Position numbers and translations under genes: made by a program | Notes under the pieces: generated by a model | Seen by the model: the letters and a program-made list of their open reading frames with translations, nothing else | The model's database searches: none | Told to the model about the DNA's origin: nothing | Virus record (IMG/VR): IMGVR_UViG_3300014047_000002 | Location: 35,129 to 99,128 of that record | DNA: 64,000 nucleotides | Origin: a virus | Lineage: Duplodnaviria; Caudoviricetes | Direction: 5' to 3' (one strand) | Shown here: positions 287 through 22,694 of the stretch, one piece after another | How the letters are laid out: every line of letters begins with the position of its first letter | Numbering within the stretch: position 1 is the first letter of the stretch

Positions 287-426
287 CGGGGGAGGAGGGA
301 TTCGAACCCACCACCATCGGATTAGCTACATAGGCAGGAATCGAACCTGCTTGCCAACTATGTAGGAGATTTAACAGTTTACTCTGTATACAGTCCGCCG
401 CTCTACGCCATGCGAGCTACTCCCCC
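287..426 (-). tRNA. tRNA-Asn(GTT) interrupted by a 65-nt intron (325-389)
   Basis: Acceptor GGGGGAG/CTCCCCC, D-arm GCTC..GAGC, T-loop TTCGAAT; removing 325-389 restores CGGA-CTGTTAA-TCCG. Confidence 0.75.
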
Positions 427-559
427 AAATTTGGTTTTACAGATAACCAAAAACTGTATTGGCGGTAGAGATTCAGCAACATTAAGTCTTTCTGACATTA
501 ACTTTAACACCCAGGTATCTACCAGTTCCCTGACCTTAGGCCTCCAGGATTTTTCCAGA

Positions 560-648
560 TGGTGGATCGAAAGGGACTCTAACCCTAATTGGCATCACGG
601 CTTTCCCGATAAATCCGTGTGGGGATTCCAGCTAATCATGCACAACCC
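560..648 (-). ncRNA. degenerate tRNA-like RNA with encoded CCA
   Basis: Ends AGGG-TTAGAGT-CCCT..TCGATCC-A-CCA; 5' GGGTTG pairs; CACGG/CCGTG stem with 14-nt loop instead of an anticodon loop. Confidence 0.45.
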
Positions 649-844
649 AACTAAAAATAAATTGAAACCCTTGCAAGTAATACTCAGATAAACCCATCCT
701 GTTTGGACCGTTCAGGGAATTCCGAAAAAGAAGCTATAAATGAATACAACTTCAGTTAACGTCAAATACCAGACTTCCCGCGAATAATATGCTTTCGAGA
801 CATACCTAATTAACTTCCTATTATCCTCATATAATTTCAATTTG

Positions 845-916
845 CGCCCCGGGTAGGGTTCGAACCTACGACCAATTGATTAACAGTCAACTGCTCTACC
901 ACTGAGCTACCGAGAC
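845..916 (-). tRNA. tRNA-Asn(GTT)
   Basis: Canonical cloverleaf; anticodon arm TTGA-CTGTTAA-TCAA. Confidence 0.95.
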
Positions 917-1352
917 AAATTAATAAAAGATATATACCAGCGACTGCGAGTTGAATTTCACTTCCCGACCTTGGCCACTACCATTTCATCACTCCATTTT
1001 GCAACCACCTTTCTTTTACTCTCTACAGATATTACGAAAATATCAACGAATGTTTAATCAGTATTAACGAATTTCTTCTCCTGAAGTTTGTCCTCCACAT
1101 TCTAAGTTACTCAGTTTCGCTACTCTTTCATTTGTAATTTAATACAGATGATACTCTATGCACCATGAACTTACTGTTCTTCCAATCTTTATATCTTTTA
1201 TAAGAAATGTAGGCACCGGATTCTACTTCTACCGATTTCATAAGATTCAGAGTCAAATGAACTATCAAATTGTTCTAACCTACGCATCTATAACTTACTT
1301 TGAGTTGCAGTTCATGACCTGACTGATTTCTTTTATAGATGTTTTATATTTG

Positions 1353-1424
1353 TAGTCCGTAGGGGAATCGGACCCCTCTTGGCAGGTTGAAAACCTGTAG
1401 TCCTAACCGATAGACGAACGGACC
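1353..1424 (-). tRNA. tRNA-Glu(TTC)
   Basis: GGTCCGTTCGTCTATCGGTTAGGAC; anticodon arm CAGG-TTTTCAA-CCTG. Confidence 0.9.
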
Positions 1425-1597
1425 AAGTTAAAGTTCTGTTCCATCTCGCTCAATGTATTCAAGCTAAAGCCTTTGGGAAGTCTTTCTTTATGTACACTCG
1501 ATTATGACACTTCCAGCAAGTAATATATGGTATAATTTCCGGATAACCTATATTGCTAATGCCAACATTTTCCTATCATTCTAGGTAATGAACTTTG

Positions 1598-1671
1598 TAG
1601 GGTTAACGAGGATCGAACTCGTATCTTCAGCGTGAAAGGCTGACCACCTAACCTATTAGTGAGATAACCCC
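1598..1671 (-). tRNA. tRNA-Glu(TTC)
   Basis: Anticodon arm TCAGC-CTTTCAC-GCTGA; T-arm ACGAG-TTCGATC-CTCGT. Confidence 0.85.
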
Positions 1672-2133
1672 AAATTACTAATAAGGATTCTGTTGTATTG
1701 AAGCGTTACGCCACTATCACGTAATAAACACCAAGGCTTCAATATATGTTTACTGAACTATGTAATAAAGGGTATTACACCCTCAGGTTGCAATGCATCC
1801 TGCTTACAGTGGTTTTTCACCTAACCTCCCTTATCAGTGGTCATATATCAAGATTCTCAATCTGCAAAGAAAAACACTGGATGGATTTCCACCATCAATC
1901 TGAGCTCATTAGCGGATTAGCTAATCTTCCGTGGACCAATACCCAAATATCGCCTCAAAATTTGAGACATTATTTAATAAAAAACGTCTCATGAGGTTTC
2001 AGTGTTTATAAAATAAAGTAGATTACCGTCAGAATTCAACTGACTTATGACATTTCAAAGCTTCATCCTGTATGTTTCAACATTTAGCTGTCCTTGTGGC
2101 TTTTCTACTCCCCACCGGAATAACCTACTTTTG

Positions 2134-2297
2134 AGCCCCAAGCCGGATTCGAACCAGCAACCTGCGCATTGGACTATATAAAGGATTCGAACCTTTATTC
2201 ACATGAATTCCCATCTGAATTTAAATATAGTCTGGTTTTTATAATGGTTACCTTCCATCTATACAAGTGCGCTGCTCTACCATTGAGCCATTGGGGC
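2134..2297 (-). tRNA. tRNA-Thr(TGT) interrupted by a 92-nt intron (2171-2262)
   Basis: Acceptor GCCCCAA/TTGGGGC; removing 2171-2262 restores GCGCA-CTTGTAA-TGCGC. Confidence 0.85.
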
Positions 2298-2999: not shown

Positions 3000-3121
3000 T
3001 GGTAATGGCAGGATTCAAACCTACGTAAAAATGGTTAGGGATAGAAATTCCATTCTCGTCGCTTTCCCTTTATCTATCATCGGTTGGGCTACCGCGCTCT
3101 AATCAGCTGAGCTACATTACC
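3000..3121 (-). ncRNA. tRNA-like RNA with 6-nt anticodon loop and ~55-nt variable insert
   Basis: Perfect acceptor GGTAATG/CATTACC, D-arm GCTC..GAGC, CGGT-AGCCCA-ACCG hairpin, T-arm GTAGG-TTTGAAT-CCTGC. Confidence 0.6.
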
Positions 3122-3263
3122 AAATAAACAATCTACACGTATCCTTTTACTCATCACCAAATGTTGACTAGTACATAATGATATTTCAAAAATACTCCTT
3201 TGATATATAACTTTTGCAACAATTATATACCTGCCTCTACTCCCAAACATCCTCGATTGCTTG

Positions 3264-3339
3264 TGGGGCTTGATGGATTCGAACCATCGACCTTTACCTT
3301 GTAAGGGTACTGCTACTGAACCAGCTGAGCTAAAGCCCC
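3264..3339 (-). tRNA. tRNA-Val(TAC)
   Basis: TACC-CTTACAA-GGTA anticodon arm; canonical acceptor and T arms. Confidence 0.9.
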
Positions 3340-4256: not shown

Positions 4257-4319
4257 AATTCAAATATAAATCTTTTAATATTTATTTCGAACCTGTTTCG
4301 TCAAAATGTAAATTTGTAG

Positions 4320-4611
4320 TGGGAGTGGAGGGATTCGAACCCCCGAAGCCGAATGGCGCCAGATTTCAAAGCTGATAACTTGCTTTCGACTATCTCATTT
4401 CCATGCAATTATTGTTTAGGAAGCTCGTCTATAGTCTGTACACATTTTATTTAGCTCGGGATTATTATTGTTTATTTTACGTGGATAATACCTTCCCCGA
4501 ATTAGCGAACTTATTCATCTATATGTTTCCATAAAGAGCTGCATTCCACATGAAGAAATGTTATCATTTATCTTACAGTCTGGTCCTAACTACCGCATTA
4601 GGAACACTCCC
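4320..4611 (-). tRNA. tRNA-Tyr(GTA) interrupted by a group I intron
   Basis: Exons rejoin as CCAGA-CTGTAAA-TCTGG; acceptor GGGAGTG/CACTCCC; Tyr-type variable arm. Confidence 0.9.
4367..4574 (-). mobile_element. Group I intron (208 nt, ORF-less) in the tRNA-Tyr anticodon
   Basis: U before 5' splice site, terminal G; P1 CUGU/GCAG with U.G; P2 with GAAA loop; P3 AAGTTCG/CGAGCTT; P4 TTCGGG/CCCGAG; P7 GACTAT/ATAGTC; P9 AAAGC/GCTTT. Confidence 0.88.
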
Positions 4612-5547: not shown

Positions 5548-5627
5548 TGAGTATGGATGGACTTGAACCACCGACGCATCTCCGCCCTTGTGGGCTTCAA
5601 CTCATTAACCACCTGTGAAACATACCC
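5548..5627 (-). ncRNA. tRNA-like RNA with aberrant anticodon arm
   Basis: Acceptor GGGTATG/CATACTC; T-arm GGTGG-TTCAAGT-CCATC; GCCC-ACAA-GGGC 4-nt-loop hairpin. Confidence 0.55.
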
Positions 5628-6391: not shown

Positions 6392-6413
6392 ATTCTAAAT
6401 TATTTAAATCATG

Positions 6414-6486
6414 CAGGGGGAGTTGGATTCGAACCAACAACTTCATGATTAAGCACTCGTGCGCTCTACCGTTGAGCTATCCCCCC
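6414..6486 (-). tRNA. tRNA (Lys CTT-like) with 8-nt anticodon loop
   Basis: Canonical D and T arms; CACGA-GTGCTTAA-TCATG. Confidence 0.6.
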
Positions 6487-7030: not shown

Positions 7031-7834
7031 TTACTTTCCGAAATGAATGAAATCAACAAGTGCATCAACATTCAAATTCTCAGCCATAACTTCTTGGTCA
7101 TTTACCTCCTTCAAAGCGGCGATAACGGCCTTAAGAACACGGCTTCTACGATCCAAAAGATCTGCCTTCTGACGCTGTGACCATTCACCAGTAAACTTCT
7201 GGAATGTGTAATCACCAGTCTCTACTGTTCTCTTCTTCTGTACAACAGCTGCACGATAGTTCTCAGGAATATTTGCAGGATTAATATTTGGATCCTTCAA
7301 AATAACATCCTCTGTTTCTGTAGTACGTGTAACACCCTTTACCATCTCTGTCTCAAGTACCTCACGATCCTTATACTCCACATTCTTAGAAGGTGTCCAA
7401 ACCTCAGAATCAGAATAAACAGGAATACGCTCATACATTGTAACAAGCTCCTTAGAAGTAAGAATGCTCTTCAAACGCATCAAATCAAGTGCAGTCAACT
7501 CACCAAATGAAACACCATCAACAACGAGTTCAACTTTCTTTGCACCAGCAGAATTTGTAGCCTCTACCTGGAAAACTTCCTTCAAGTAATTCTTTGCTAC
7601 CTTATCACCAAACCAATCAAGCTGTTCCTTAACAGTAGTCTGTACATTTGTAGTACCCTGCTTGGTTGGGTCCTCAGAATAACCCTCACGAGGTGTAAAT
7701 GTTTTCTTCTCACCACGGAAAGCACCCTGACTCTTCTTAAAATACTCAGCATACTCATTTACTTCTTTATTATAAACTGATGCTGAATGATCAACCTTGG
7801 CAAGCAAGGTATTCATCTTTACTGCGTTACTCAT
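7031..7834 (-). CDS. conserved hypothetical alpha-helical protein (267 aa)
   Basis: Long TAG-free ORF with strongly biased codons (AAG, GAG, GGT, CAG); family not verified. Confidence 0.85.
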   Translation of the reverse strand: MSNAVKMNTLLAKVDHSASVYNKEVNEYAEYFKKSQGAFRGEKKTFTPREGYSEDPTKQGTTNVQTTVKEQLDWFGDKVAKNYLKEVFQVEATNSAGAKKVELVVDGVSFGELTALDLMRLKSILTSKELVTMYERIPVYSDSEVWTPSKNVEYKDREVLETEMVKGVTRTTETEDVILKDPNINPANIPENYRAAVVQKKRTVETGDYTFQKFTGEWSQRQKADLLDRRSRVLKAVIAALKEVNDQEVMAENLNVDALVDFIHFGK

Positions 7835-13324: not shown

Positions 13325-13352
13325 AAAGGTGAGAAAATTAATTCTCACCTTT
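13325..13352. terminator. hairpin between convergent genes
   Basis: AAAGGTGAGAA/TTCTCACCTTT inverted repeat. Confidence 0.6.
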
Positions 13353-14504
13353 CTTTATATTAAACATAATCAATAAACTTATAAAGTATAATACTGCAAG
13401 TATTCCGAATAATGATTCATAACTCCAATGTAAAGTATTCAATACTAAATTAGAAATCTGATTACCGGATAATCCTGCCCATGCCCATGCAGATAATGCA
13501 AATCCATGTATTGTACTTATTTGTGTCATACCAAATTTACTCTGTAAAAGTGTTGGAAGTGTAGAAAAACCTCCACCATAACCTGCATTAATAATACATA
13601 ACATTGCCGGTATAAACAATAACCAAATACATCCCATCAACATTCCTATAAAAGAACTTGCAAAGATTACTATATAAATCCATTCTTTCCTATCTACAAA
13701 ATCCGAAGATGTTGAATAACCAAATCTTCCTATTGTATTAAACAATGCAGTAAATGCTGCAAGAATTCCTATATTAGTTAATCCGGCATAAAGTCCGATA
13801 GATTTCTCAAATGAAATCAATGCCAAACCACATGTAATATTCAAATAGAAAATCAGCCATATTTTCAAATATGTATAATCTGAAATAATATGCCAATAAT
13901 CTTTTATATTATGTTTTATTTGTGGTTCTTTCCAATCCAACGGTTTTCTTATCAAATATGTTGCACATGACATTAATACAATACTAATTAACGCCATAAT
14001 TATTAATGTATGATAAATGGAATGAGCATTATTACACCATTCAATAAAAGGTGAAAATAATACCTTTGATAATCCAAATCCAGAAATAGCAATACCTGTA
14101 GCCAATCCTTTATGCTTACTAAACCAAAGCATCAATGTTTTTACCGGTGACAAATATCCTATTCCTAATCCAATACCCATTAAACATCCATAACTAAGCA
14201 TAAGACCTAACACGCTATGCATCATAATAGATACAACAGATAATCCTAAGCCTCCTGTAAAACATAGCATGGATATAAATGATGATTGCTTTACATTTTT
14301 TTCAACAAACGTTCCACCAAACGCTGCAGACATACCCAAGAAAAATATAGCAAGAGAAAAAGCAAACTCTATACTAGACACTGTACAACCTATTTCTTGA
14401 GCAATCTCATCTTTTAAAAGTGACCAGCAATAAACACTGCCGATACATGAATGCAGTAAGAGTGCGGGTACTGCTGCCCTTAACCATTTATTTTCAAGAC
14501 TCAT
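13338..14504 (-). CDS. MFS transporter, oxalate/formate antiporter (OFA/OxlT-like) family
   Basis: About 12 TM helices; motifs GSVYCWS, GIGLGIGYLSPVKTLMLWF..KGLATGIAISGFG, YGGGFSTLP. Confidence 0.9.
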   Translation of the reverse strand: MSLENKWLRAAVPALLLHSCIGSVYCWSLLKDEIAQEIGCTVSSIEFAFSLAIFFLGMSAAFGGTFVEKNVKQSSFISMLCFTGGLGLSVVSIMMHSVLGLMLSYGCLMGIGLGIGYLSPVKTLMLWFSKHKGLATGIAISGFGLSKVLFSPFIEWCNNAHSIYHTLIIMALISIVLMSCATYLIRKPLDWKEPQIKHNIKDYWHIISDYTYLKIWLIFYLNITCGLALISFEKSIGLYAGLTNIGILAAFTALFNTIGRFGYSTSSDFVDRKEWIYIVIFASSFIGMLMGCIWLLFIPAMLCIINAGYGGGFSTLPTLLQSKFGMTQISTIHGFALSAWAWAGLSGNQISNLVLNTLHWSYESLFGILAVLYFISLLIMFNIKKGEN

Positions 14505-14985
14505 TCGTTAATGTTTTAGTATATAAATTATTCATATATTCTACCATTTCCTCCCTTGAATTAAATAATTCTTTCATATCTGGCAAAACCAATTTACATT
14601 TTTCTTTACCATCATAATAAAATATATCTCGTCCAAATACTGATTCTACTTTATATTCTGGTTCACCAAAAGCTAATCCAACATTCAGTAAATATTGTTT
14701 TAACCATGGAAAATTAGTATCTTCTGCTACTTTATAACCTGACACTGCTTCATCTTCATCTTGTGGATTAACTTGTACAAATTCATCATCCCAATTAAAG
14801 ATATAACATAATACTAAGAAATATAATTCATCATTCAATAAATCATCCAATTCTATTGTATCATGCATTTCAGACTCATCATCAAATTCACAGATAATAT
14901 GAACTTTATACCATTCTCTTTGTGGTTTTCTTAATTGCACAATTTTTACTTTACTTGCATACTTCGTCTCTAGATATTCCGTCAT
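14494..14985 (-). CDS. hypothetical protein
   Basis: Tightly packed operon ORF, TAG-free. Confidence 0.75.
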   Translation of the reverse strand: MTEYLETKYASKVKIVQLRKPQREWYKVHIICEFDDESEMHDTIELDDLLNDELYFLVLCYIFNWDDEFVQVNPQDEDEAVSGYKVAEDTNFPWLKQYLLNVGLAFGEPEYKVESVFGRDIFYYDGKEKCKLVLPDMKELFNSREEMVEYMNNLYTKTLTNES

Positions 14986-15418
14986 AATCTTCGTAATTTA
15001 AATCCCAATCTTTTCTAAAATCCCACATAAAGGCTTCATAGTCCTGAAGCCTCCAACAACGCTCTTCATTAATTTCTTTTAGTCGATCTTTACATGCTTG
15101 TCTATGAGGTCCTAAGTTAGTTAATGCTAATTGTTTATCATATTCCTCAATACATAAATCAAATATTATATTCTTTATCTTTTCTATATTTGTTTTACGT
15201 ATATCCAAATAATCCAATTTATCACTTGGCTCATGATTATGATAAACTGTATCTCTATAATATTCTGGTTCTGACATTAATTCATATTTAAAGTTATTAA
15301 TAGATTTTTTAAAATCTTTTAAATAATTTCTATGTATTTTATGAATATCTTTTAAAAAACTTTTATTAATTTGATTAAATCTATTATATAATTCTAATAG
15401 TTTTTTATCTTTTTTCAT
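14951..15418 (-). CDS. hypothetical protein
   Basis: Overlapping start/stop in operon. Confidence 0.75.
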   Translation of the reverse strand: MKKDKKLLELYNRFNQINKSFLKDIHKIHRNYLKDFKKSINNFKYELMSEPEYYRDTVYHNHEPSDKLDYLDIRKTNIEKIKNIIFDLCIEEYDKQLALTNLGPHRQACKDRLKEINEERCWRLQDYEAFMWDFRKDWDLNYEDYDGISRDEVCK

Positions 15419-15687
15419 TTTAATATAGTTTCTTTTAATAAAATAAGTGTATGATTTAATCCATAATCATTTATATCATATACACAATAATATTCATCAT
15501 CCATATCATCAAATAATTCCCTATTTCCATTCTGCCAATATGGATTTGTTTTTTTATCTAATGTTACCTCTCTTTTAAATCTCTTTTTCGCTTTTTCTTT
15601 ATCAGTAGTAGTTATTAATAAATTTATTGCATCACACCCATCTTTAACTTCAACTTTTACTACTGTATAGATTTTCGTCTGTTCCAT
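15415..15687 (-). CDS. hypothetical protein
   Basis: Probable start MEQTK; ATGA overlap with next gene. Confidence 0.7.
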   Translation of the reverse strand: MEQTKIYTVVKVEVKDGCDAINLLITTTDKEKAKKRFKREVTLDKKTNPYWQNGNRELFDDMDDEYYCVYDINDYGLNHTLILLKETILK

Positions 15688-16204
15688 AAAAAGGTTCCTC
15701 ACAATTTTTATCATCAAATACAAATTTCACCTCACCAAAACCTGTATCATCTACCTCTCCATCTTCCTCAAAAAATAATTTATCTTTTAAATATATGTCT
15801 CCATCTTTTACAATTAAGTCAAATCCAAAACGATACATATATTTACTGATTTCCTTCATTATCCATTTTGCTTGTTTTTTACGATCATCATCCCAGCAAA
15901 CAGAAGGTTGCCAATTTTCTGCTCCGCGAAATCCCATCTCTGATAATTTCTTTCTTGCAGATTCCAATGTTTCATTAGATAATGACATATCTTGAATAAC
16001 TTTATAGAAATCATATGGACGATATGAATGTTTACCAGCTAAAAAATCTTCAAAATGTGTTACATCATAATCTTCTACCCCGAACTTTCTTGTCATAAGT
16101 TCTTTAAGTTCATCCTTTGTTAAATTCCAATCTGTAAATGTATCAACAACAGAACTAAAACGCGCATATTTTCCGTTTGGTTGTTTTGTAATAACGGCTC
16201 CCAT
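15650..16204 (-). CDS. hypothetical phage protein
   Basis: N-terminal KQPNGKYARFSSVVD motif; operon context. Confidence 0.8.
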   Translation of the reverse strand: MGAVITKQPNGKYARFSSVVDTFTDWNLTKDELKELMTRKFGVEDYDVTHFEDFLAGKHSYRPYDFYKVIQDMSLSNETLESARKKLSEMGFRGAENWQPSVCWDDDRKKQAKWIMKEISKYMYRFGFDLIVKDGDIYLKDKLFFEEDGEVDDTGFGEVKFVFDDKNCEEPFYGTDENLYSSKS

Positions 16205-16215
16205 ATTATTAATTA

Positions 16216-16533
16216 TTAATTATTAAACATCAAATAATCTTGATATACAATTTTAAAAAGTAAATTACATTCATCTATAGCACCTTGGTAATGTACTTTA
16301 TTCTTATTTTCTTGATTATCCTTACATTCTTTTATAGTATCAGTAAGCCAATCAAATATATTATGTATATTAAAATTTTTTTGCGTTTGAAGAAAACAAT
16401 CAAAATCATCATTAATTGATATTCTTCCAGAAAAATAATCAATATCATAATCATTATCTGAAAGATCACACATAAGTTGCCAGTGATTCTTCTGAGCAAA
16501 ATTATACATTCGTATAGTCTCTAATGTTCTCAT
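16216..16533 (-). CDS. hypothetical protein
   Basis: Operon ORF. Confidence 0.7.
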   Translation of the reverse strand: MRTLETIRMYNFAQKNHWQLMCDLSDNDYDIDYFSGRISINDDFDCFLQTQKNFNIHNIFDWLTDTIKECKDNQENKNKVHYQGAIDECNLLFKIVYQDYLMFNN

Positions 16534-16539
16534 ATTCTT

Positions 16540-16821
16540 TTAATCCTTTAAATCTACTATATCTTCTAAATCTACTAAAAACGTTTTTATTTTGTTTTTC
16601 TTTTTAATAGTAATTTCCAATTTTTTCTTTGCTGCTTTTAAAGCTTTTTGTTTACATTCCTCATTAGGAAAATAAAATATTGCCGGTCCATGTGATCCTG
16701 GAAAATCTGGATATTCTACACAATTCTTTTCAATATTATATGTTTGAGGATAAAAAGAATTATCATATAATTTCTTAAAAAGCTTTAAATGCTGATACTC
16801 TTCTTCAGATATATTTTTCAT
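16540..16821 (-). CDS. hypothetical protein
   Basis: Operon ORF. Confidence 0.7.
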   Translation of the reverse strand: MKNISEEEYQHLKLFKKLYDNSFYPQTYNIEKNCVEYPDFPGSHGPAIFYFPNEECKQKALKAAKKKLEITIKKKNKIKTFLVDLEDIVDLKD

Positions 16822-17074
16822 CTCTGATTTCTGGATTTAATAATTGACTGTTTAACTTCTTCTTTTTATATTCTAATTTATTAATTTTAGAATCTAATTG
16901 ATATATTTCTTCTTTTATTTTCTTATGAAGTTTTTGTTTTGCTTCAATAATAGTTTCAGAATATAAATCTTTATTTTCTTGATAATTATCAGTATTTAGA
17001 TCTATCATTATAGATTCAATCCAATACTGATTATTCTTTTTATTTGAATTAATAACCCAATATTTCTTTTTCAT
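16805..17074 (-). CDS. hypothetical coiled-coil protein
   Basis: Operon ORF. Confidence 0.7.
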   Translation of the reverse strand: MKKKYWVINSNKKNNQYWIESIMIDLNTDNYQENKDLYSETIIEAKQKLHKKIKEEIYQLDSKINKLEYKKKKLNSQLLNPEIRDEKYI

Positions 17075-17075
17075 A

Positions 17076-17336
17076 TTATTCCTCTGAAGTTGATTTAATC
17101 ACTGTTTCATCATTATCATTAACAGTAATTCTACCATCAAGACATGCGGTAATAAAATTATGTATTGCTTCACCACTTGCCTTTGCATTCTTTTCAAGAG
17201 AATCTTCAAACCACTTAATACGTTCTTTGAGCTTTTTATTCTCCTCTTCTAATTCCTTATTTTCATCTATAAGTTGTTCTACTGCGCTGGTAATATCCCA
17301 TAAAGGTAATAATCTCTCTAATATTTTTGATTCCAT
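17076..17336 (-). CDS. hypothetical coiled-coil protein
   Basis: Operon ORF. Confidence 0.7.
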   Translation of the reverse strand: MESKILERLLPLWDITSAVEQLIDENKELEEENKKLKERIKWFEDSLEKNAKASGEAIHNFITACLDGRITVNDNDETVIKSTSEE

Positions 17337-17342
17337 AATAAA

Positions 17343-17642
17343 TTATCTTTTATGTTTAAGCCATTCCAAAAATTCACTAAGGTTTACTCTTACTTCCTCA
17401 ACACCTATCCCTGTTTCGCTACATTCATCAAAGAAACTAATAGTTACTACAATAATATCATTATATTCAATATAGCTGATACCTGTAACATGTGGTTCTT
17501 CTTCAGACATTTGTGATATATCTAATTCATAATCATCTATAATTCGTTTAATATCTTTTTTAAGATATTTCTCTAAATAAGTATAAAGTTCCCTTGTTTT
17601 CTTAATACAAAGCTCAAACTCTTTAATTGTACTTTCTTTCAT
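17343..17642 (-). CDS. hypothetical protein
   Basis: Operon ORF. Confidence 0.7.
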   Translation of the reverse strand: MKESTIKEFELCIKKTRELYTYLEKYLKKDIKRIIDDYELDISQMSEEEPHVTGISYIEYNDIIVVTISFFDECSETGIGVEEVRVNLSEFLEWLKHKR

Positions 17643-17653
17643 AATTAATTATT

Positions 17654-17899
17654 TTACATTGATGTTGATCCTAACCATGAAAATGAATTTCTTGCAGCTG
17701 CTTCTGCTCTATCAGAAACCTCACGTTCACATTCATGAAATTTACTATAAGTATCATCAAAATTAGGATATTGTAAATTATGAGTATCTAAATACTCTTT
17801 AAATGCTTCATATTTTTTACAAAGAGCACGTACCCTACATTCATAGGTTCTATGTCTAAATCCTGTATATTCTCCTGTACAATATGTACGTTCTTTCAT
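17654..17899 (-). CDS. hypothetical protein
   Basis: TAATG coupling with upstream gene. Confidence 0.7.
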   Translation of the reverse strand: MKERTYCTGEYTGFRHRTYECRVRALCKKYEAFKEYLDTHNLQYPNFDDTYSKFHECEREVSDRAEAAARNSFSWLGSTSM

Positions 17900-18129
17900 T
17901 ATTCTATAGGTTTTAATTTATCTTCAAAATATTTGCTTAATAACCATTCTTCTTTACCATTATCATAAACATGACATAATTCATAGTAAATACAAGTATG
18001 AAGTTTACCATCTTCCAATTTAACTGTCCAAGTACTTACAGACATAACTCTACATTTCCATGGTTTATCTTCATCACAATCTTGATAATAAACAAGATCA
18101 CCAATACTATATTTTGTTTTTATATCCAT
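17899..18129 (-). CDS. hypothetical protein (SH3/KOW-like start TKYSIGDLVY)
   Basis: Operon ORF. Confidence 0.7.
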   Translation of the reverse strand: MDIKTKYSIGDLVYYQDCDEDKPWKCRVMSVSTWTVKLEDGKLHTCIYYELCHVYDNGKEEWLLSKYFEDKLKPIE

Positions 18130-18132
18130 AAA

Positions 18133-19449
18133 TTAATCACCCCCATCTGCTGCTTTAATATTAATCTTAGGTATCATCATATGCTTAATTACACAAGTAT
18201 CTGTAATTAAGTTTTTAATTTCATCTGTATCTTTATAAGCCATCGGTGACTCATCGATAGTACCTTTGCAAACAGTTGTAGAATATACATTTATCATAGA
18301 TTCTTTATATTCTTCCATTGAAATATTCTGCTTAGCCTTAGAGCGGGACATTTTTCTTCCGGCACCATGTGCACATGAATTTAGCCATTCTGAATTTGAA
18401 AGACCTTCACAAATTGCAATACCATCTCTCATATTAAATGGTACCAGCATTTCCTCACCTTCATATGCTCGTATTGCAGACTTTCTTAAAATATGGTCAT
18501 GAAGATCAATAAAATTATGAGTGGATGTAATTGTTCTTATCTCTTTAATTCCATATTTAATAAGAATGTCCTTAATTATCTTTTGCACAGTCATATGATT
18601 ATATTGTGCATAAAGCTGTGCAAAACACATATCACAAAGATAGCCTTTCATATATTCTCCTGAAAGATAACCATTAATATGATTTACAGAAAGTCCTTTA
18701 ATAAATTCTTCTTTAGCTTTTTGAAATTCCTTGTTATTAGAATGTGTTTTCTTATATTCCTGTTTAAAATTCTTTAATGCTTCTTTCATCTCTTCCTTTG
18801 GCATAGGCTGATTTGCTTTTTGCATCCAATATTTACAAACCTTTACACCAAAATTACGAGATCCAAAATGTAATGTTACTCCTGCTAAATCATCCTCTGT
18901 AGATTCGTCATATTCAATAAAATGATTACCTCCACCTACTGTTCCTAATGATTTATAAAAAGTGCCTTCATCCATATTCAACCTCTTAAGCTGCTCAGTA
19001 ATCCATTTTTCTGTTACTTGATCCGGAAGATTCATCAGCATTTCAGGCCAGAAATTACGATATTTGTTAAATCCTTGAGTAAGAAATTGTCTAAACTGTC
19101 TTTCATCAATAATTACATGATCATTAAGTTCAAAGCCAAATGGAACATTATTTTTTATACGATGTTCAAATTCAGAATATTTAACCTTTGGAACTTTCTT
19201 ATCCAATATCATCATTGATACAGTACATCCAATATCAACACCAATATGTTCTGGACAAATATAATCGCCAATAGTTGTAACTAATCCACATGGACCTGAT
19301 GGTCCTACATGTACATCTGGCATACATACAACAGTTTGATTAGCAAATGCTGGACAATTAATTATATCATATACTTGTCCATATACATCTGCCTCTATAG
19401 TATCAGCAAATATTTTTGCTGTTGTATATTTTCCTGTTAACTCTATCAT
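18133..19449 (-). CDS. rtcB: RtcB family RNA 2',3'-cyclic phosphate/5'-OH ligase
   Basis: MPDVH, GVDIGC, LGTVGGGNHFIE, HFGSR, HN, HGAGR, DESPMAYK motifs. Confidence 0.95.
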   Translation of the reverse strand: MIELTGKYTTAKIFADTIEADVYGQVYDIINCPAFANQTVVCMPDVHVGPSGPCGLVTTIGDYICPEHIGVDIGCTVSMMILDKKVPKVKYSEFEHRIKNNVPFGFELNDHVIIDERQFRQFLTQGFNKYRNFWPEMLMNLPDQVTEKWITEQLKRLNMDEGTFYKSLGTVGGGNHFIEYDESTEDDLAGVTLHFGSRNFGVKVCKYWMQKANQPMPKEEMKEALKNFKQEYKKTHSNNKEFQKAKEEFIKGLSVNHINGYLSGEYMKGYLCDMCFAQLYAQYNHMTVQKIIKDILIKYGIKEIRTITSTHNFIDLHDHILRKSAIRAYEGEEMLVPFNMRDGIAICEGLSNSEWLNSCAHGAGRKMSRSKAKQNISMEEYKESMINVYSTTVCKGTIDESPMAYKDTDEIKNLITDTCVIKHMMIPKINIKAADGGD

Positions 19450-19898
19450 TTTTTATATAATCTCTTAAATTGCTCCAATTCTTTAATAGTTGCATTTTTT
19501 CTACTATTAAGATTTGATATTTCTTTATCAATATCATTAATACTATCATTAATATCATTTATGGCCATATTTATTACACTATCTTTATTAGTTCCAATAA
19601 TATAACCATCGTAATATACAATAGATTTATTTTTTGACTCTAAAGTATTTCCACTATGACATGTACCAAAATTAATAGCTTTTATTTTATTACTATTTAA
19701 TGAAATATAATAACATCCTCTTGCCATATGCCACGGACGTGATACTTTTATTTCTAATATATCATTTCTTTTCAAAAAATAAAGAATATCACCATCTTTA
19801 ATATCTACAAATCGTTTATCACCATCAACATATTTTGTAGGACTATAATAATTATTATAATATGTTGCATAACAATCATAAAATAAACTACTACTCAT
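19446..19898 (-). CDS. hypothetical protein
   Basis: ATGA-coupled to rtcB. Confidence 0.75.
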   Translation of the reverse strand: MSSSLFYDCYATYYNNYYSPTKYVDGDKRFVDIKDGDILYFLKRNDILEIKVSRPWHMARGCYYISLNSNKIKAINFGTCHSGNTLESKNKSIVYYDGYIIGTNKDSVINMAINDINDSINDIDKEISNLNSRKNATIKELEQFKRLYKK

Positions 19899-19909
19899 AT
19901 TTTAAATCT

Positions 19910-20359
19910 TTATAATTCTTCGATTTTTAATCTTACTGTCATTGCACGTCTATCACCCTTTCTGAATTCATATTCATTAGTTTCATAATTCAATTGATCA
20001 TACTCCCAAAATCGTTGAGAATCTGGACCATAAGGAAAACAAATAGCGTACAATTTAATATTTCTCCATATTATTGAAATTTTTAAATTATTCTTTTCAA
20101 ATCCATCAATAAATCCAAAATAATCTATTGAATTTTCATCATAATCAGAATCTTTATTCATAAGATCCTTAATTATTACATCTTCTTCTATTATTGTACA
20201 TTTTACCCTGATAACCTGCTCAGGTGATCTACCATATAGATTGGCAAATTTTTTATCTATGCCAAAGCTATCATATACCATTTCACCCGTCTTGATATGT
20301 TTATGCTTTGCACAATTTATCTCAAAAGATGTGCCAACTTTATAATCATTAATTGTCAT
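19910..20359 (-). CDS. hypothetical protein
   Basis: Operon ORF. Confidence 0.75.
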   Translation of the reverse strand: MTINDYKVGTSFEINCAKHKHIKTGEMVYDSFGIDKKFANLYGRSPEQVIRVKCTIIEEDVIIKDLMNKDSDYDENSIDYFGFIDGFEKNNLKISIIWRNIKLYAICFPYGPDSQRFWEYDQLNYETNEYEFRKGDRRAMTVRLKIEEL

Positions 20360-20454
20360 TTAATATTTTATAATCAGTATTTTTAGGATAACTGTCTATT
20401 ATTCCAAATAAATTAATAAAATTATAATACTCTATTAATTTTTTAATATCAATA

Positions 20455-21033
20455 TTAATATCTTTTAGTTCCATCTTGACATAAATCATTATATTGTTTT
20501 AGTTCTTCACATTTATTTGGTAAATTATGACATTTTAATAAATGTTGAAAGCGTAATTCAAAATTTAATGCCATCGGATTCTGAAACCATTTTCTATTTA
20601 ATACTTTTATTGCACGTATTGCTTCTGTTTCTGTAATACCATCTTCATAATTAGTTTGTACAAAATGGTATAACTGAGAATCCCACATATCACCATCATC
20701 ATCAATTATAACATAGTTATCAATTTCTGAATGATTATTAAGATACTGCTGGATTTCCCCACCTCTACCATTACCTAAACCTACCCATGGTGTTACATCA
20801 TAAAGGTTATCAATTAACCAATATAGCATTTTATTCCTTGGACATCTTTTTTCTTTATAAACCATACTTTTTCTAGTTTCTTCAACAGTCTGCATACGCC
20901 AAGAAGATGAAACAACAATTTTTGCTGCTGTTTCATCTACTATCCTCTTAATCAATTTTATTTTATCTGCTTTAAGATACCATTTTGGAGGAATTGTAAT
21001 AACGCCATCGAAATCTAGAAATATTACTTTCAT
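20455..21033 (-). CDS. HAD-family phosphatase (Swiss-Army-Knife RNA-repair HAD-like)
   Basis: IFLDFDGV, IVVSSSWR, RGGEIQQYL, YVIIDDD, FVQT..GIT. Confidence 0.85.
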   Translation of the reverse strand: MKVIFLDFDGVITIPPKWYLKADKIKLIKRIVDETAAKIVVSSSWRMQTVEETRKSMVYKEKRCPRNKMLYWLIDNLYDVTPWVGLGNGRGGEIQQYLNNHSEIDNYVIIDDDGDMWDSQLYHFVQTNYEDGITETEAIRAIKVLNRKWFQNPMALNFELRFQHLLKCHNLPNKCEELKQYNDLCQDGTKRY

Positions 21034-21269
21034 AAAGTTAAAATAGTATTTACAAGCTGCTTACGCTCTTCAACAAGTTCATTTAGTTGTTCATCCAATT
21101 TCTTCAATTTTTTATTTAATCGTTGGCGTAAGTATTCTTTTGCGTCTTTTTCATTTTCAAATGTCCACGGTTTTGCATATTCATAGTATGATGAGTTAGG
21201 ATCCAAAAATACTTCATTAATTTCTACTTTTTGGACATTTACTTGAAAAAATTTCTTTTTCTTTTCCAT
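21030..21269 (-). CDS. hypothetical protein
   Basis: Operon ORF. Confidence 0.7.
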   Translation of the reverse strand: MEKKKKFFQVNVQKVEINEVFLDPNSSYYEYAKPWTFENEKDAKEYLRQRLNKKLKKLDEQLNELVEERKQLVNTILTL

Positions 21270-21270
21270 T

Positions 21271-21672
21271 TTATAAAATTATACTTAATATAATAATGAT
21301 AAAAGTTATAAATATTTGAATAAAATGTATTAACTGATCTTCTACAAGATTCAATTCAAACTTATTCGCTTTTAAATCATCTACATATGCATGTACTAAA
21401 CCGTTTATAATAATACATCCTATTAATGCAATACATGATACTGTTGGTACCAAAAACATAACTGGTAACATTATCATAATACTCCAAGAGAATGCATGTA
21501 TTATCAAAGCGGCAATATAATCATTCTTATACTTTTCTATATCAACGTTTGCATCTTTACATAAGCGCTCCCAATAATTCTTTTGTTTTAAATTACTGAG
21601 ACATACCGGTTGAAATACAAAATCATCAATAATATGGCATAAAACCATTAATAAAAATACTTTCAAAAACAT
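21271..21672 (-). CDS. DUF3307-like membrane protein
   Basis: HIIDDFVFQ..LIIHA..HAYVDDLK..DQLIH motifs. Confidence 0.8.
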   Translation of the reverse strand: MFLKVFLLMVLCHIIDDFVFQPVCLSNLKQKNYWERLCKDANVDIEKYKNDYIAALIIHAFSWSIMIMLPVMFLVPTVSCIALIGCIIINGLVHAYVDDLKANKFELNLVEDQLIHFIQIFITFIIIILSIIL

Positions 21673-21793
21673 ACAATATTCATTAAATTTGTATAATTAA
21701 TCTTTAGATTATTATAAAAAAATAATAATTGTCTAAAATACAATTACATATTAACAAAATTTAATAAATATTATAAAGGTAAATTTATACAAA

Positions 21794-22048
21794 ATGATGT
21801 TGGTTGTCGAACTAATGTAGAATTTTATATATATTGTGCAAGGATACAGTATATGGCTTTACAACAAGATTACTGGTAAGTCTTCGGAAATCGCTAAAAA
21901 ACGCCTTGATATTTGTAATAAATGTGAACATAATAAAAATGGAGTTTGTGAAATTTGTGGTTGCATATTAAAAGCCAAAGTCAGAGCAATCTATCCTATT
22001 GATGATTTTGGCATAAGTATAGAAGGTTGTCCAGAACGAAAGTGGTAA
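21794..22048 (+). CDS. small Cys-rich Zn-binding protein
   Basis: RLDICNKC..CEICGC.LKAK..CPERKW; start extended through TAG (21815 also possible). Confidence 0.7.
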
Positions 22049-22068
22049 AGGAAATTTAGAAGAAATAG

Positions 22069-22101
22069 AGAATGCATATTAATTAGATATGCATTCTTTT
22101 T
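22069..22101 (+). terminator. intrinsic terminator
   Basis: AGAATGCATAT/ATATGCATTCT + T-run. Confidence 0.7.
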
Positions 22102-22151
22102 ATACTTTAAATTATATCATACAATAAATATTAAAATATTAATTTACCATA

Positions 22152-22694
22152 ATGACACATAATAATAAAGTTCTTTATGAAAATATAATAAATGGTTTAT
22201 CTAAAAATTTATTAAAATGTATAAATGAATCACAAATAGATTTATTATTAGATACAGAAAAAGAGATATTAGATAATAAAGATTTTCAAAATTGGTTTAA
22301 AAATTCTAAATGTGTAGATGAGGATAACATGACGCCATTAGTGCTTTTTTATGGTGGTGAAATTGGTTCTACTGATAACTATTGGTTTTCTGATAGTAAT
22401 ATTGTAGCTAAATATTTTGGTGCTGATAATAGAAACCGTTTTAGAAAAACACGTTTTCATAAAGCATTTATTAAAATGTTAAATCCATTAATTATTGATT
22501 GGGGATATGATGCATGGTCATTTCATTATGATGATAATGATAATATTGTTGATACAGAAACAATGGCAGTAACAGCAAAAGAAAAAGGCTATGATGGATT
22601 AATTATTAAAAATGTATATGAAGGTGAAAATGAACAATATTTATGTGATGATTATGTAGTATTTAATGATAAACAAATTTATTGGATAAAATAA
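22152..22694 (+). CDS. ADP-ribosyltransferase-like protein (ART-PolyVal-like)
   Basis: FQNWFKNSKCVD..PLVLFYG..WFSD..A..NPLIID..GYDGLII..YVVFNDKQI. Confidence 0.65.
   Translation: MTHNNKVLYENIINGLSKNLLKCINESQIDLLLDTEKEILDNKDFQNWFKNSKCVDEDNMTPLVLFYGGEIGSTDNYWFSDSNIVAKYFGADNRNRFRKTRFHKAFIKMLNPLIIDWGYDAWSFHYDDNDNIVDTETMAVTAKEKGYDGLIIKNVYEGENEQYLCDDYVVFNDKQIYWIK

Follow-up and report, generated by a model that had tools for sequence, protein, structure and literature searches.

Lak-type introns of a common tRNA-like architecture in two tRNA genes of a TAG-recoded phage and a candidate route for their removal

A stretch of 64,000 nt from an uncultured giant gut phage (hereafter the window; positions 35129-99128 of the virus contig IMGVR_UViG_3300014047_000002) contains a tRNA-Asn and a tRNA-Thr gene that are interrupted in the anticodon loop by introns of 65 and 92 nt, respectively. 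The contig has a size of 99 kb, representing about 18% of a genome, and a GC content of 28%, and its long reading frames are found only with TAG read as an amino acid (TAG=Q), as in the Lak megaphages. The two introns are new members of the published, mechanistically unexplained class of introns known from Lak phages, and not a new kind. Comparison with other members of the class leads us to favour the reading that they are probably small, mobile and protein-dependent introns that are built like a tRNA processing unit and removed by tRNA-trimming enzymes together with an RNA ligase. To our knowledge, bacteria and their viruses splice tRNAs only when the intron is a self-splicing group I intron. 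The inserts described here are far too small for group I and are found where we know of no splicing endonuclease, and still the genes that contain them are clearly maintained in a functional state.

Both genes belong to a minus-strand tRNA array that fills the first 7 kb of the window. They were called by ARAGORN with introns allowed (c286/287-426 and c2133/2134-2297) and by the Rfam tRNA model, which assigned 36 bits to the Asn gene with 68 nt skipped and 54 bits to the Thr gene with 94 nt skipped, the skipped nucleotides lying in the anticodon loop in both cases (gathering score 29). The paired inserts that the original prediction had described were confirmed, with the following composition.

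287..426, minus strand: interrupted tRNA-Asn(GUU), with the 5' exon at 426..390, the 3' exon at 324..287, G73 at 287 and an encoded C74 at 286
325..389, minus strand: Lak-type intron of the Asn gene, 65 nt, at tRNA positions 35|36 (coordinates checked letter by letter)
366..389, minus strand: 5' module of the Asn intron, comprising AUA, the hairpin ACAG-AGUAAA-CUGU (387..374) and the linker UAAAUCUC (RNAfold, stem covariation)
325..365, minus strand: inner tRNA-like minihelix of the Asn intron, 13 stacked pairs plus C
Parts of this minihelix, minus strand: 5' strand 365..358, connector of 7 nt 357..351, T arm 350..334, 3' strand 333..326, unpaired C 325
2134..2297, minus strand: interrupted tRNA-Thr(UGU), with the 5' exon at 2297..2263, the 3' exon at 2170..2134, U73 at 2134 and an encoded C74 at 2133
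2171..2262, minus strand: Lak-type intron of the Thr gene, 92 nt, at tRNA positions 36|37 (coordinates checked letter by letter)
2233..2262, minus strand: 5' module of the Thr intron, comprising AUA, the hairpin GAUGG-AAGGUAA-CCAUU and the A-rich linker AUAAAAACCA (RNAfold)
2171..2232, minus strand: inner tRNA-like module of the Thr intron (fold, letter check)
Parts of this module, minus strand: 5' strand 2232..2225, extra hairpin of 28 nt 2224..2197, T arm 2196..2180, 3' strand 2179..2172, C 2171

The inner stem of the Asn intron consists of 8 bp (CUACAUAG/CUAUGUAG) stacked on a 5-bp T arm (GCAGG/CCUGC), and that of the Thr intron of 8 bp (GACUAUAU/AUAUAGUC) on the 5-bp T arm AAAGG/CCUUU. Both T loops read UUCGAWU, and one unpaired C ends each intron. 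The claim that the two introns share one architecture, with AUA following the exon UGU, a hairpin, the stack of 8 and 5 bp and the final C, held in every element when checked by letters. The described structure was obtained as both the minimum free energy and the centroid fold when RNAfold was applied to each intron alone (z = -2.2 and -2.1). A strict descriptor requiring a GTTCGAWWC loop and 13 stacked pairs found six sites in the 99-kb contig, namely four ordinary tRNAs and the two introns, and zero sites in 30 composition-preserving shuffles of the whole contig. A third Lak-type intron of this phage is located just upstream of the window in a tRNA-Ala(UGC) gene (contig c32942-33102; L146:6943-7103). 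It comprises 86 nt and forms a stack of 9 bp, one G.A layer and 3 bp within a host tRNA that carries G3:U70.

The architecture was then defined on a set of 15 copies (13 distinct stacks) drawn from the present phage, from Lak phages and from further phages that are uncultured. The Lak copies were re-read from the Lak genomes, and pattern scans of IMG/VR provided further copies from a 235-kb relative (L012/G003, with introns in tRNA-Asn, tRNA-Thr and tRNA-Lys genes), from the B-Lak-like contigs L126 and L147, and from L167, an unrelated phage fragment of higher GC content. A first scan with the bare 14-mer hairpin yielded no T loop downstream of the hairpin among the matches listed, and the locus L012 from that scan was later found to hold three real family members. 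All copies, 65-141 nt in length, follow the same plan, in which the exon is followed by WUA, a hairpin of 4-6 bp starting at intron nucleotide 3-4, an A-rich linker and an acceptor-like 5' strand, and then by 3-79 variable nucleotides, the T arm, the acceptor-like 3' strand and a single C that precedes the 3' exon. UA at intron positions 2-3 and the terminal C are present in each of the 15 copies. The acceptor-like stem is coaxial with a consensus T arm that has a G-C closing pair and a UUCGAWU-type loop, and it leaves one unpaired 3' base. Counted outward from the T loop, the stack comprises 13 layers, followed by C, in 14 of the 15 copies; the copy of L167 has 12 pairs and a G.G mismatch.

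Standard pairs occupy 167 of the 169 cells of these stacks, and layers 3-13 each contain three to six pair types, so that the stack is backed by plentiful compensatory change and the covariation of the inner stems that had been expected was indeed found. The pairs were counted by a script anchored on the T loop, in which the 5' strand was placed by complementarity and the respective part of the count therefore leans towards structure; a MAFFT alignment of 14 copies was gap-free in the 3' half and left the inner 5' strands unaligned. The leader hairpin likewise varies in sequence with its pairing kept (ACAG/CUGU, GAUGG/CCAUU, CAGUG/CACUG, ACGG/CCGU, CAAUC/GAUUG, CAGAUA/UAUCUG and others), and its stem is retained in the Thr ortholog of L012 (AAUGG/CCAUU) with a different loop. 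The tRNA-Lys(UUU) gene at L012:5005-5159 is a clear family member with the T loop UCCGACU. A further interrupted tRNA-Lys(UUU) gene was observed at L183 c434-655.

The exact splice register was settled by intron-less alleles. Alleles with and without intron that differ by the insert alone were found in Lak-A1 and Lak-C1, in L167 and L163, and in L159. The tRNA-Thr gene of Lak-C1 equals that of Lak-A1 minus an exact 114-nt insert (TTACAATC...CATAGAGC) at positions 36|37, and the Asn exons are identical in L167, where the intron is present, and in the intron-less L163. L159 contains the intron-less ortholog of the window Asn gene, which reads GGACTGT|TAATCCG, shares the unusual D arm of the window gene and has a compensated acceptor stem. 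The spliced Thr 29-mer, with 2171-2262 removed, occurs exactly in 11 uninterrupted phage tRNA-Thr(UGU) genes, and the alternative Thr register 37|38 gives the same product as 36|37. Accordingly, the Asn and Thr identities and the registers favoured in the original prediction were corroborated by the L159 ortholog and by the 29-mer in the tRNA-Thr genes. The Ser and Gly calls of ARAGORN, including that of the Thr gene as Gly, are register errors that are contradicted by the intron-less alleles. Throughout the family, the two halves of the anticodon loop always sum to a 7-nt loop with a sensible anticodon.

Introns of this type were described by Devoto et al. (2019, Nat Microbiol; PMC6784885, Fig. 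4 and Table S6) as "enigmatic introns" in Lak phage tRNAs. Three of the four types listed there carry the entry "no hit in rfam", and neither a common architecture nor a mechanism is given. The same study stated that the intron of a Lak tRNA-Thr "itself may encode a tRNA", which was restated in a 2026 survey (PMC13037316), and the novelty that had been claimed for the nested mimic is thus lost to these reports. The class nevertheless stays interesting, as no splicing route is known for Lak-type introns. The introns of the window and of the Lak phages are both inserted in the anticodon loop of tRNAs of a TAG-recoded, low-GC giant phage, and both occur as intron-plus and intron-minus alleles. 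Homology extends over the AUACAG... start, the ARUAAA-type hairpin loop, the AUUAAA-type linker, the GGUUCGAWUCC loop and the ...GUAGC|UAAUC end. Specifically, the window Asn intron (GACUGU|AUACAGAG...CUAUGUAGC|UAAUC) is homologous to the Lak-A1 intron (GACUGU|AUACAGG...UUAUGUAGC|UAAUC) that is listed as "Tyr GTA" in PMC6784885. Lak-B7 carries at L118:13043-13114 the intron-less ortholog of this Lak-A1 gene (L001 c30004-30168), which reads GACTGT|TAATC and by which the gene published as "Tyr (GTA)" is shown to be a tRNA-Asn(GUU) with the intron between 35|36. The junction rule, a C after the 13-layer stack and WUA located 2-3 nt before a hairpin, also corrects tRNA annotation in recoded megaphages, for instance where Asn is miscalled as Tyr, Ser or Gly. 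The window Asn intron differs from the Lak copies in that it is shorter than every one compared, its inner tRNA being reduced to a bare minihelix. A BLAST comparison of the window Asn gene with GenBank phages gave zero matches.

The exons of the interrupted genes have evolved as those of working tRNAs. Between the Thr exons of G000 and L012, both interrupted, four compensatory stem pairs and no broken pair were counted. Three other gene sets revealed one to seven compensatory pairs, again with none broken, and a fifth set of five Asn genes contained six compensatory and two broken pairs. As judged from these exchanges, the interrupted genes are shown to be working genes whose exons are under selection for the cloverleaf. 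The possibility raised at the outset, that the inner modules are fragments of other tRNA genes inserted into dead pseudogenes, is ruled out by the compensatory evolution of the exons. A comparison of Asn-1 of Lak-A1 with Asn-2 of Lak-B7 revealed introns that are 94% identical within exons that are 60% identical, and the other copy in each genome is intron-free. The intron has therefore moved from one paralogous Asn gene to another while keeping its position in the loop.

With respect to established intron classes, the introns resemble group I introns in that these also reside in tRNA anticodon loops of bacteria and phages and are mobile and sporadic. Group I introns are self-splicing ribozymes of at least 200 nt that possess a P1-P9 core, follow a 5' exon whose last base is U and themselves end in G, whereas introns of the window type have 65-141 nt, a terminal C and zero matches to group I models. 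An Rfam search with both window introns returned no group I (RF00028, E <= 10), ribozyme or other family match. The bulge-helix-bulge introns of archaea and eukaryotes are likewise small and located in or near the anticodon loop, and removal by proteins with rejoining by a ligase is also what is proposed here. Unlike in that class, the junctions lie in a three-way junction of anticodon stem, leader hairpin and minihelix and not in 3-nt bulges 4 bp apart. The only nearby 4-bp pairing (CUGU/GUAG in Asn) would leave 0 and 1 nt between the helix and the cuts, and no such pairing exists in Thr. The statement that the introns are neither group I nor bulge-helix-bulge introns is accordingly upheld by the Rfam result, the terminal C and the junction geometry.

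Enzymes that process tRNA ends, such as RNase P, RNase Z and the CCA-adding enzyme, require no more of their substrate than an acceptor stem stacked on a T arm. The introns share with such minihelix substrates the single unpaired base that follows the acceptor/T stack, here at the intron end, and they differ from the standard minihelix by 13 layers instead of 12 and by an extra leader of 24-33 nt that has to be removed. The terminal C stands 14 nt after the T loop, at the position of C74, and is equally the first unpaired base after the 13-bp stack. This position makes the 3' splice site coincide with the normal tRNA 3'-processing site of RNase Z, an enzyme that cleaves tRNA precursors behind the discriminator. 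At its inner 5' end the minihelix matches the position of an RNase P site, and the A-rich linker resembles the ordinary inter-tRNA leaders of the same arrays. An encoded C74 was found in 107 of 111 ordinary tRNA genes of this array and of Lak, L012, L159, L163 and L167 (those counted in the window include 844-916, 1352-1424 and 3263-3339). The next base is mostly A or T, a full CCA is rarely encoded and U(-1) is usual, a pattern that suggests a specific 3'-end rule that these phages have in common.

We infer the splicing of these tRNAs from sequence comparison and propose the following order of events. An RNase Z-type enzyme would cut the 3' junction behind the first base that is left unpaired on the 3' side of the acceptor/T stack, and RNase P would process the 5' terminus of the minihelix. 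The 5' exon would be released by one more cleavage at N|WUA, a site that precedes the leader hairpin by 2-3 nt; its context, mostly R-N|W-U, single-stranded and beside a hairpin, would be compatible with a cut of the RNase E/G type, which is a conjecture. Finally, an RNA ligase would seal the nick in the anticodon loop, whose two halves are kept in place by the remainder of the tRNA, as the phage T4 ligase of the PNK/Rnl1 repair system seals a nick in the anticodon loop. In its specific form, with RNase Z, RNase P, a hairpin-directed 5' cut and a ligase constituting a third route of phage tRNA splicing that is free of both ribozymes and EndA, and with the minihelix perhaps spreading the intron, the proposal is a tentative one that we hold to be possible. 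We know of no tRNA for which excision of an intron by end-processing enzymes has been demonstrated. Removal by RNase Z, RNase P and a ligase would, if true, constitute a new splicing pathway made from housekeeping enzymes, the introns would represent mobile elements of a new kind with anticodon loops as their target, and the junction rule makes the route directly testable in vitro.

Two other candidates for the 5' cut were rejected. An alternative pairing by which RNase P might reach the 5' junction is offered only by Asn (CUGUAUA with UAUGUAG) and places the cut at 31|32, and the UACA motif for a MazF/PemK-type cut is not universal (AUAG in Thr) and lies 2 nt off. The leader itself provides a hint. 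The leaders AUACAGAGUAAACUGUUAAAUC of the window and UUAACAGAGUAAACUGUAUUAAAUC of the Lak tRNA-Phe intron are nearly identical to the motif (C)TAACAGAGTAAACTGT(W)TAAATCA. This leader-like motif, also given as CTAACAGAGTAAACTGTWTAAATCA, occurs between genes in about 30 other IMG/VR contigs of unrelated, uncultured phages, including L011, L030, L081, L092, L132, L133 and L136, where it is sequence-invariant and present once or twice per genome. It has a constant orientation, precedes a start codon by 1-70 nt, in many cases with a terminator-like hairpin ahead of it, and comprises a shared stretch of 20-25 nt. The nearest cultured relatives of one motif-bearing contig are crAss-like phages, and among GenBank phages the motif was found only in the Lak Phe intron. 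It may represent a promoter or an RNA-processing signal, and in the latter case the 5' cut would be explained. A scan for sigma-70 promoters predicted none inside the introns.

The enzymes encoded by the phages were examined with respect to this route. The window contains two RNA-repair genes about 16-19 kb from the tRNA array.

18133..19449, minus strand: RtcB RNA ligase gene (Pfam PF01139, E = 7.8e-57; PHROG "tRNA splicing ligase")
20455..21033, minus strand: HAD_SAK_2 phosphatase-like gene of RNA-repair systems (Pfam PF18143, E = 3.4e-22)

RtcB was absent from the complete genomes of Lak-A1, Lak-C1 and Lak-B7, all of which contain homologous introns, and from the 235 kb of G003, which has three of them. 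Since RtcB co-occurs with the introns in the present contig and is missing from these four, the phage RtcB is not a general partner of the introns. A Bacteroides control matched RtcB in the profile search, and a host RtcB may take part. A splicing endonuclease of the EndA type (PF01974) was matched in none of five phage records and, among the controls, in archaea only, and we know of no such enzyme from bacterial hosts. An RNase Z-type fold was not found in the Lak genomes either, and with EndA, RtcB and this fold all missing there, the nucleases would be those of the host. RNA-ligase-like proteins of family PF09414 gave four to six matches per Lak genome, one of them beside the tRNA array, and two matches in G003, the best with 95.7 bits. 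A search of the three Lak genomes for T4 Rnl1 gave no match, with the control also being silent. A CCA-adding-type enzyme (PF01743) is likewise present in the Lak genomes. The 3'-OH and 5'-phosphate ends that are left by RNase P, RNase Z and RNase E are joined by ATP-dependent ligases and not by RtcB. The ends predicted here would therefore suit the PF09414-type ligases of Lak and G003, and such ATP-dependent ligases fit better than RtcB.

Several observations weigh against the proposed route. The 5' splice site is located 24-33 nt upstream of the RNase P site and is explained by no known tRNA enzyme, so that after RNase P cleavage the 5' exon still carries a tail of 24-33 nt. The paired -1:73 and the 13-layer stack differ from the 12 layers of a standard tRNA, and L167 even has a G.G mismatch. 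PF09414 was not found in the 99-kb fragment, whereas RtcB is present, and the PF09414 profile also matched the E. coli and B. subtilis controls and may include DNA-ligase-like proteins. Moreover, every interrupted tRNA of this contig is accompanied by an isoacceptor twin that lacks an intron (Asn at 844-916, those of Thr and Ala upstream), which would make a loss of function tolerable in this contig.

Among the other explanations, the one given in the original prediction was that the inner mimic positions a nuclease and that the phage RtcB and HAD proteins heal and seal the exons. Its general part, a class of introns spliced by proteins and guided by the inner mimic, stands as the best reading, and the part assigned to RtcB/HAD is not supported, given the absence of RtcB from three Lak genomes. 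In its full form, a metal-independent nuclease would leave 2',3'-cyclic phosphate and 5'-OH ends for the RtcB and the HAD phosphatase of the phage. The proximity of both genes to the array speaks for it, as does the role of RtcB as the tRNA-splicing ligase of archaea and animals, and the RtcB of Bacteroides-type hosts could serve phages without their own. We consider it doubtful all the same, since G003 and the three complete Lak genomes retain the introns without RtcB, no EndA-type or other candidate nuclease was found, the 3' junction lies at an RNase Z-type site whose product is not joinable by RtcB, and RtcB/HAD modules are generic RNA-repair systems. The module of the phage is more likely a general tRNA-repair system. 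The presence of these repair genes could also be taken to mean that the introns mainly protect or regulate, with their mode of removal being of secondary importance, either by keeping a pool of pre-tRNAs immune to host anticodon nucleases or by delaying maturation until a phage ligase is made. The introns do interrupt or adjoin the anticodon of tRNA types that are hit by such nucleases, and Asn is among the types attacked by anticodon nucleases of the colicin E5 type. The sporadic presence of the introns among near-identical phages, also reported in PMC6784885, points to a mobile element and not to a required defence, and renders this role quite improbable.

That the inserts are never spliced is a different proposition, in which a selfish or regulatory DNA cassette of a promoter-like hairpin and a small tRNA-like RNA gene sits in redundant tRNA genes. 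Its product would be a minihelix RNA that RNase P and RNase Z release, with the tRNA around it being destroyed or serving as a mere scaffold. The intact isoacceptor copies in this contig, the match of the 5' module to the intergenic motif 1-70 nt upstream of genes in other phages, and the stand-alone T-arm-capped hairpin RNAs in Lak arrays are all consistent with such a cassette. It is nonetheless unlikely in view of the perfect cloverleaves that are kept through compensatory changes in lineages both carrying the intron, of loop halves that always restore a 7-nt loop with a sensible anticodon, and of intron-less alleles that are otherwise identical. Furthermore, no Phe gene other than the interrupted one was seen in the 45-kb array of Lak-A1, and the introns lack a predicted sigma-70-like promoter. 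A self-splicing or self-cleaving ribozyme finds a precedent in the probable small group I intron of the tRNA-Tyr gene in the same array. Such a nature is very improbable for inserts of 65-141 nt, which are too small for group I and have no terminal G, which gave zero matches to Rfam ribozyme or group I models, and in which conservation is confined to a T arm and simple helices. Removal by tRNA-trimming enzymes and a ligase thus remains the reading that we prefer.

Additional features of the phage and its relatives were noted. The block at 13338-22694 of the window, which encodes RtcB, HAD_SAK_2, an MFS transporter and an ART-PolyVal domain protein, contains zero in-frame TAG codons, and most large window genes outside this block contain 2-20 of them. 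The block looks like a standard-code (early?) region within a recoded phage. No CUA suppressor tRNA was seen in the 99-kb fragment, though TAG is read through. The gene of the DUF7873 protein (7031-7834) was used as bait for related arrays and revealed relatives that have no tRNA array beside that gene.

Within the array, a tRNA-like gene at 6413-6486 (minus strand) has an anticodon loop of 8 nt (ARAGORN anticodon "gctt"; Rfam 53.6 bits). Further tRNA-shaped RNAs, in which the acceptor, D and T arms are present and the anticodon arm is replaced or enlarged, are located on the minus strand at 3000-3121, 2909-2995, 5548-5627 and about 1-110. They reached Rfam tRNA scores of 39, 30 (tRNA-Sec model) and 26 bits and belong to a type that differs from the minihelix introns. 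Stand-alone RNAs forming long hairpins capped by a T arm were observed within Lak arrays, for instance at L118:14381-14486. Finally, the tRNA-Tyr(GUA) gene at 4319-4611 (minus strand) contains a 208-nt insert with the intron at about 4367-4561, the 5' exon ending in U and the insert in G. A local search with the Rfam group I intron model matched this insert in full length below threshold (29 bits, E = 9e-6). The insert is probably a small group I intron, by which two different intron classes would reside within one array.

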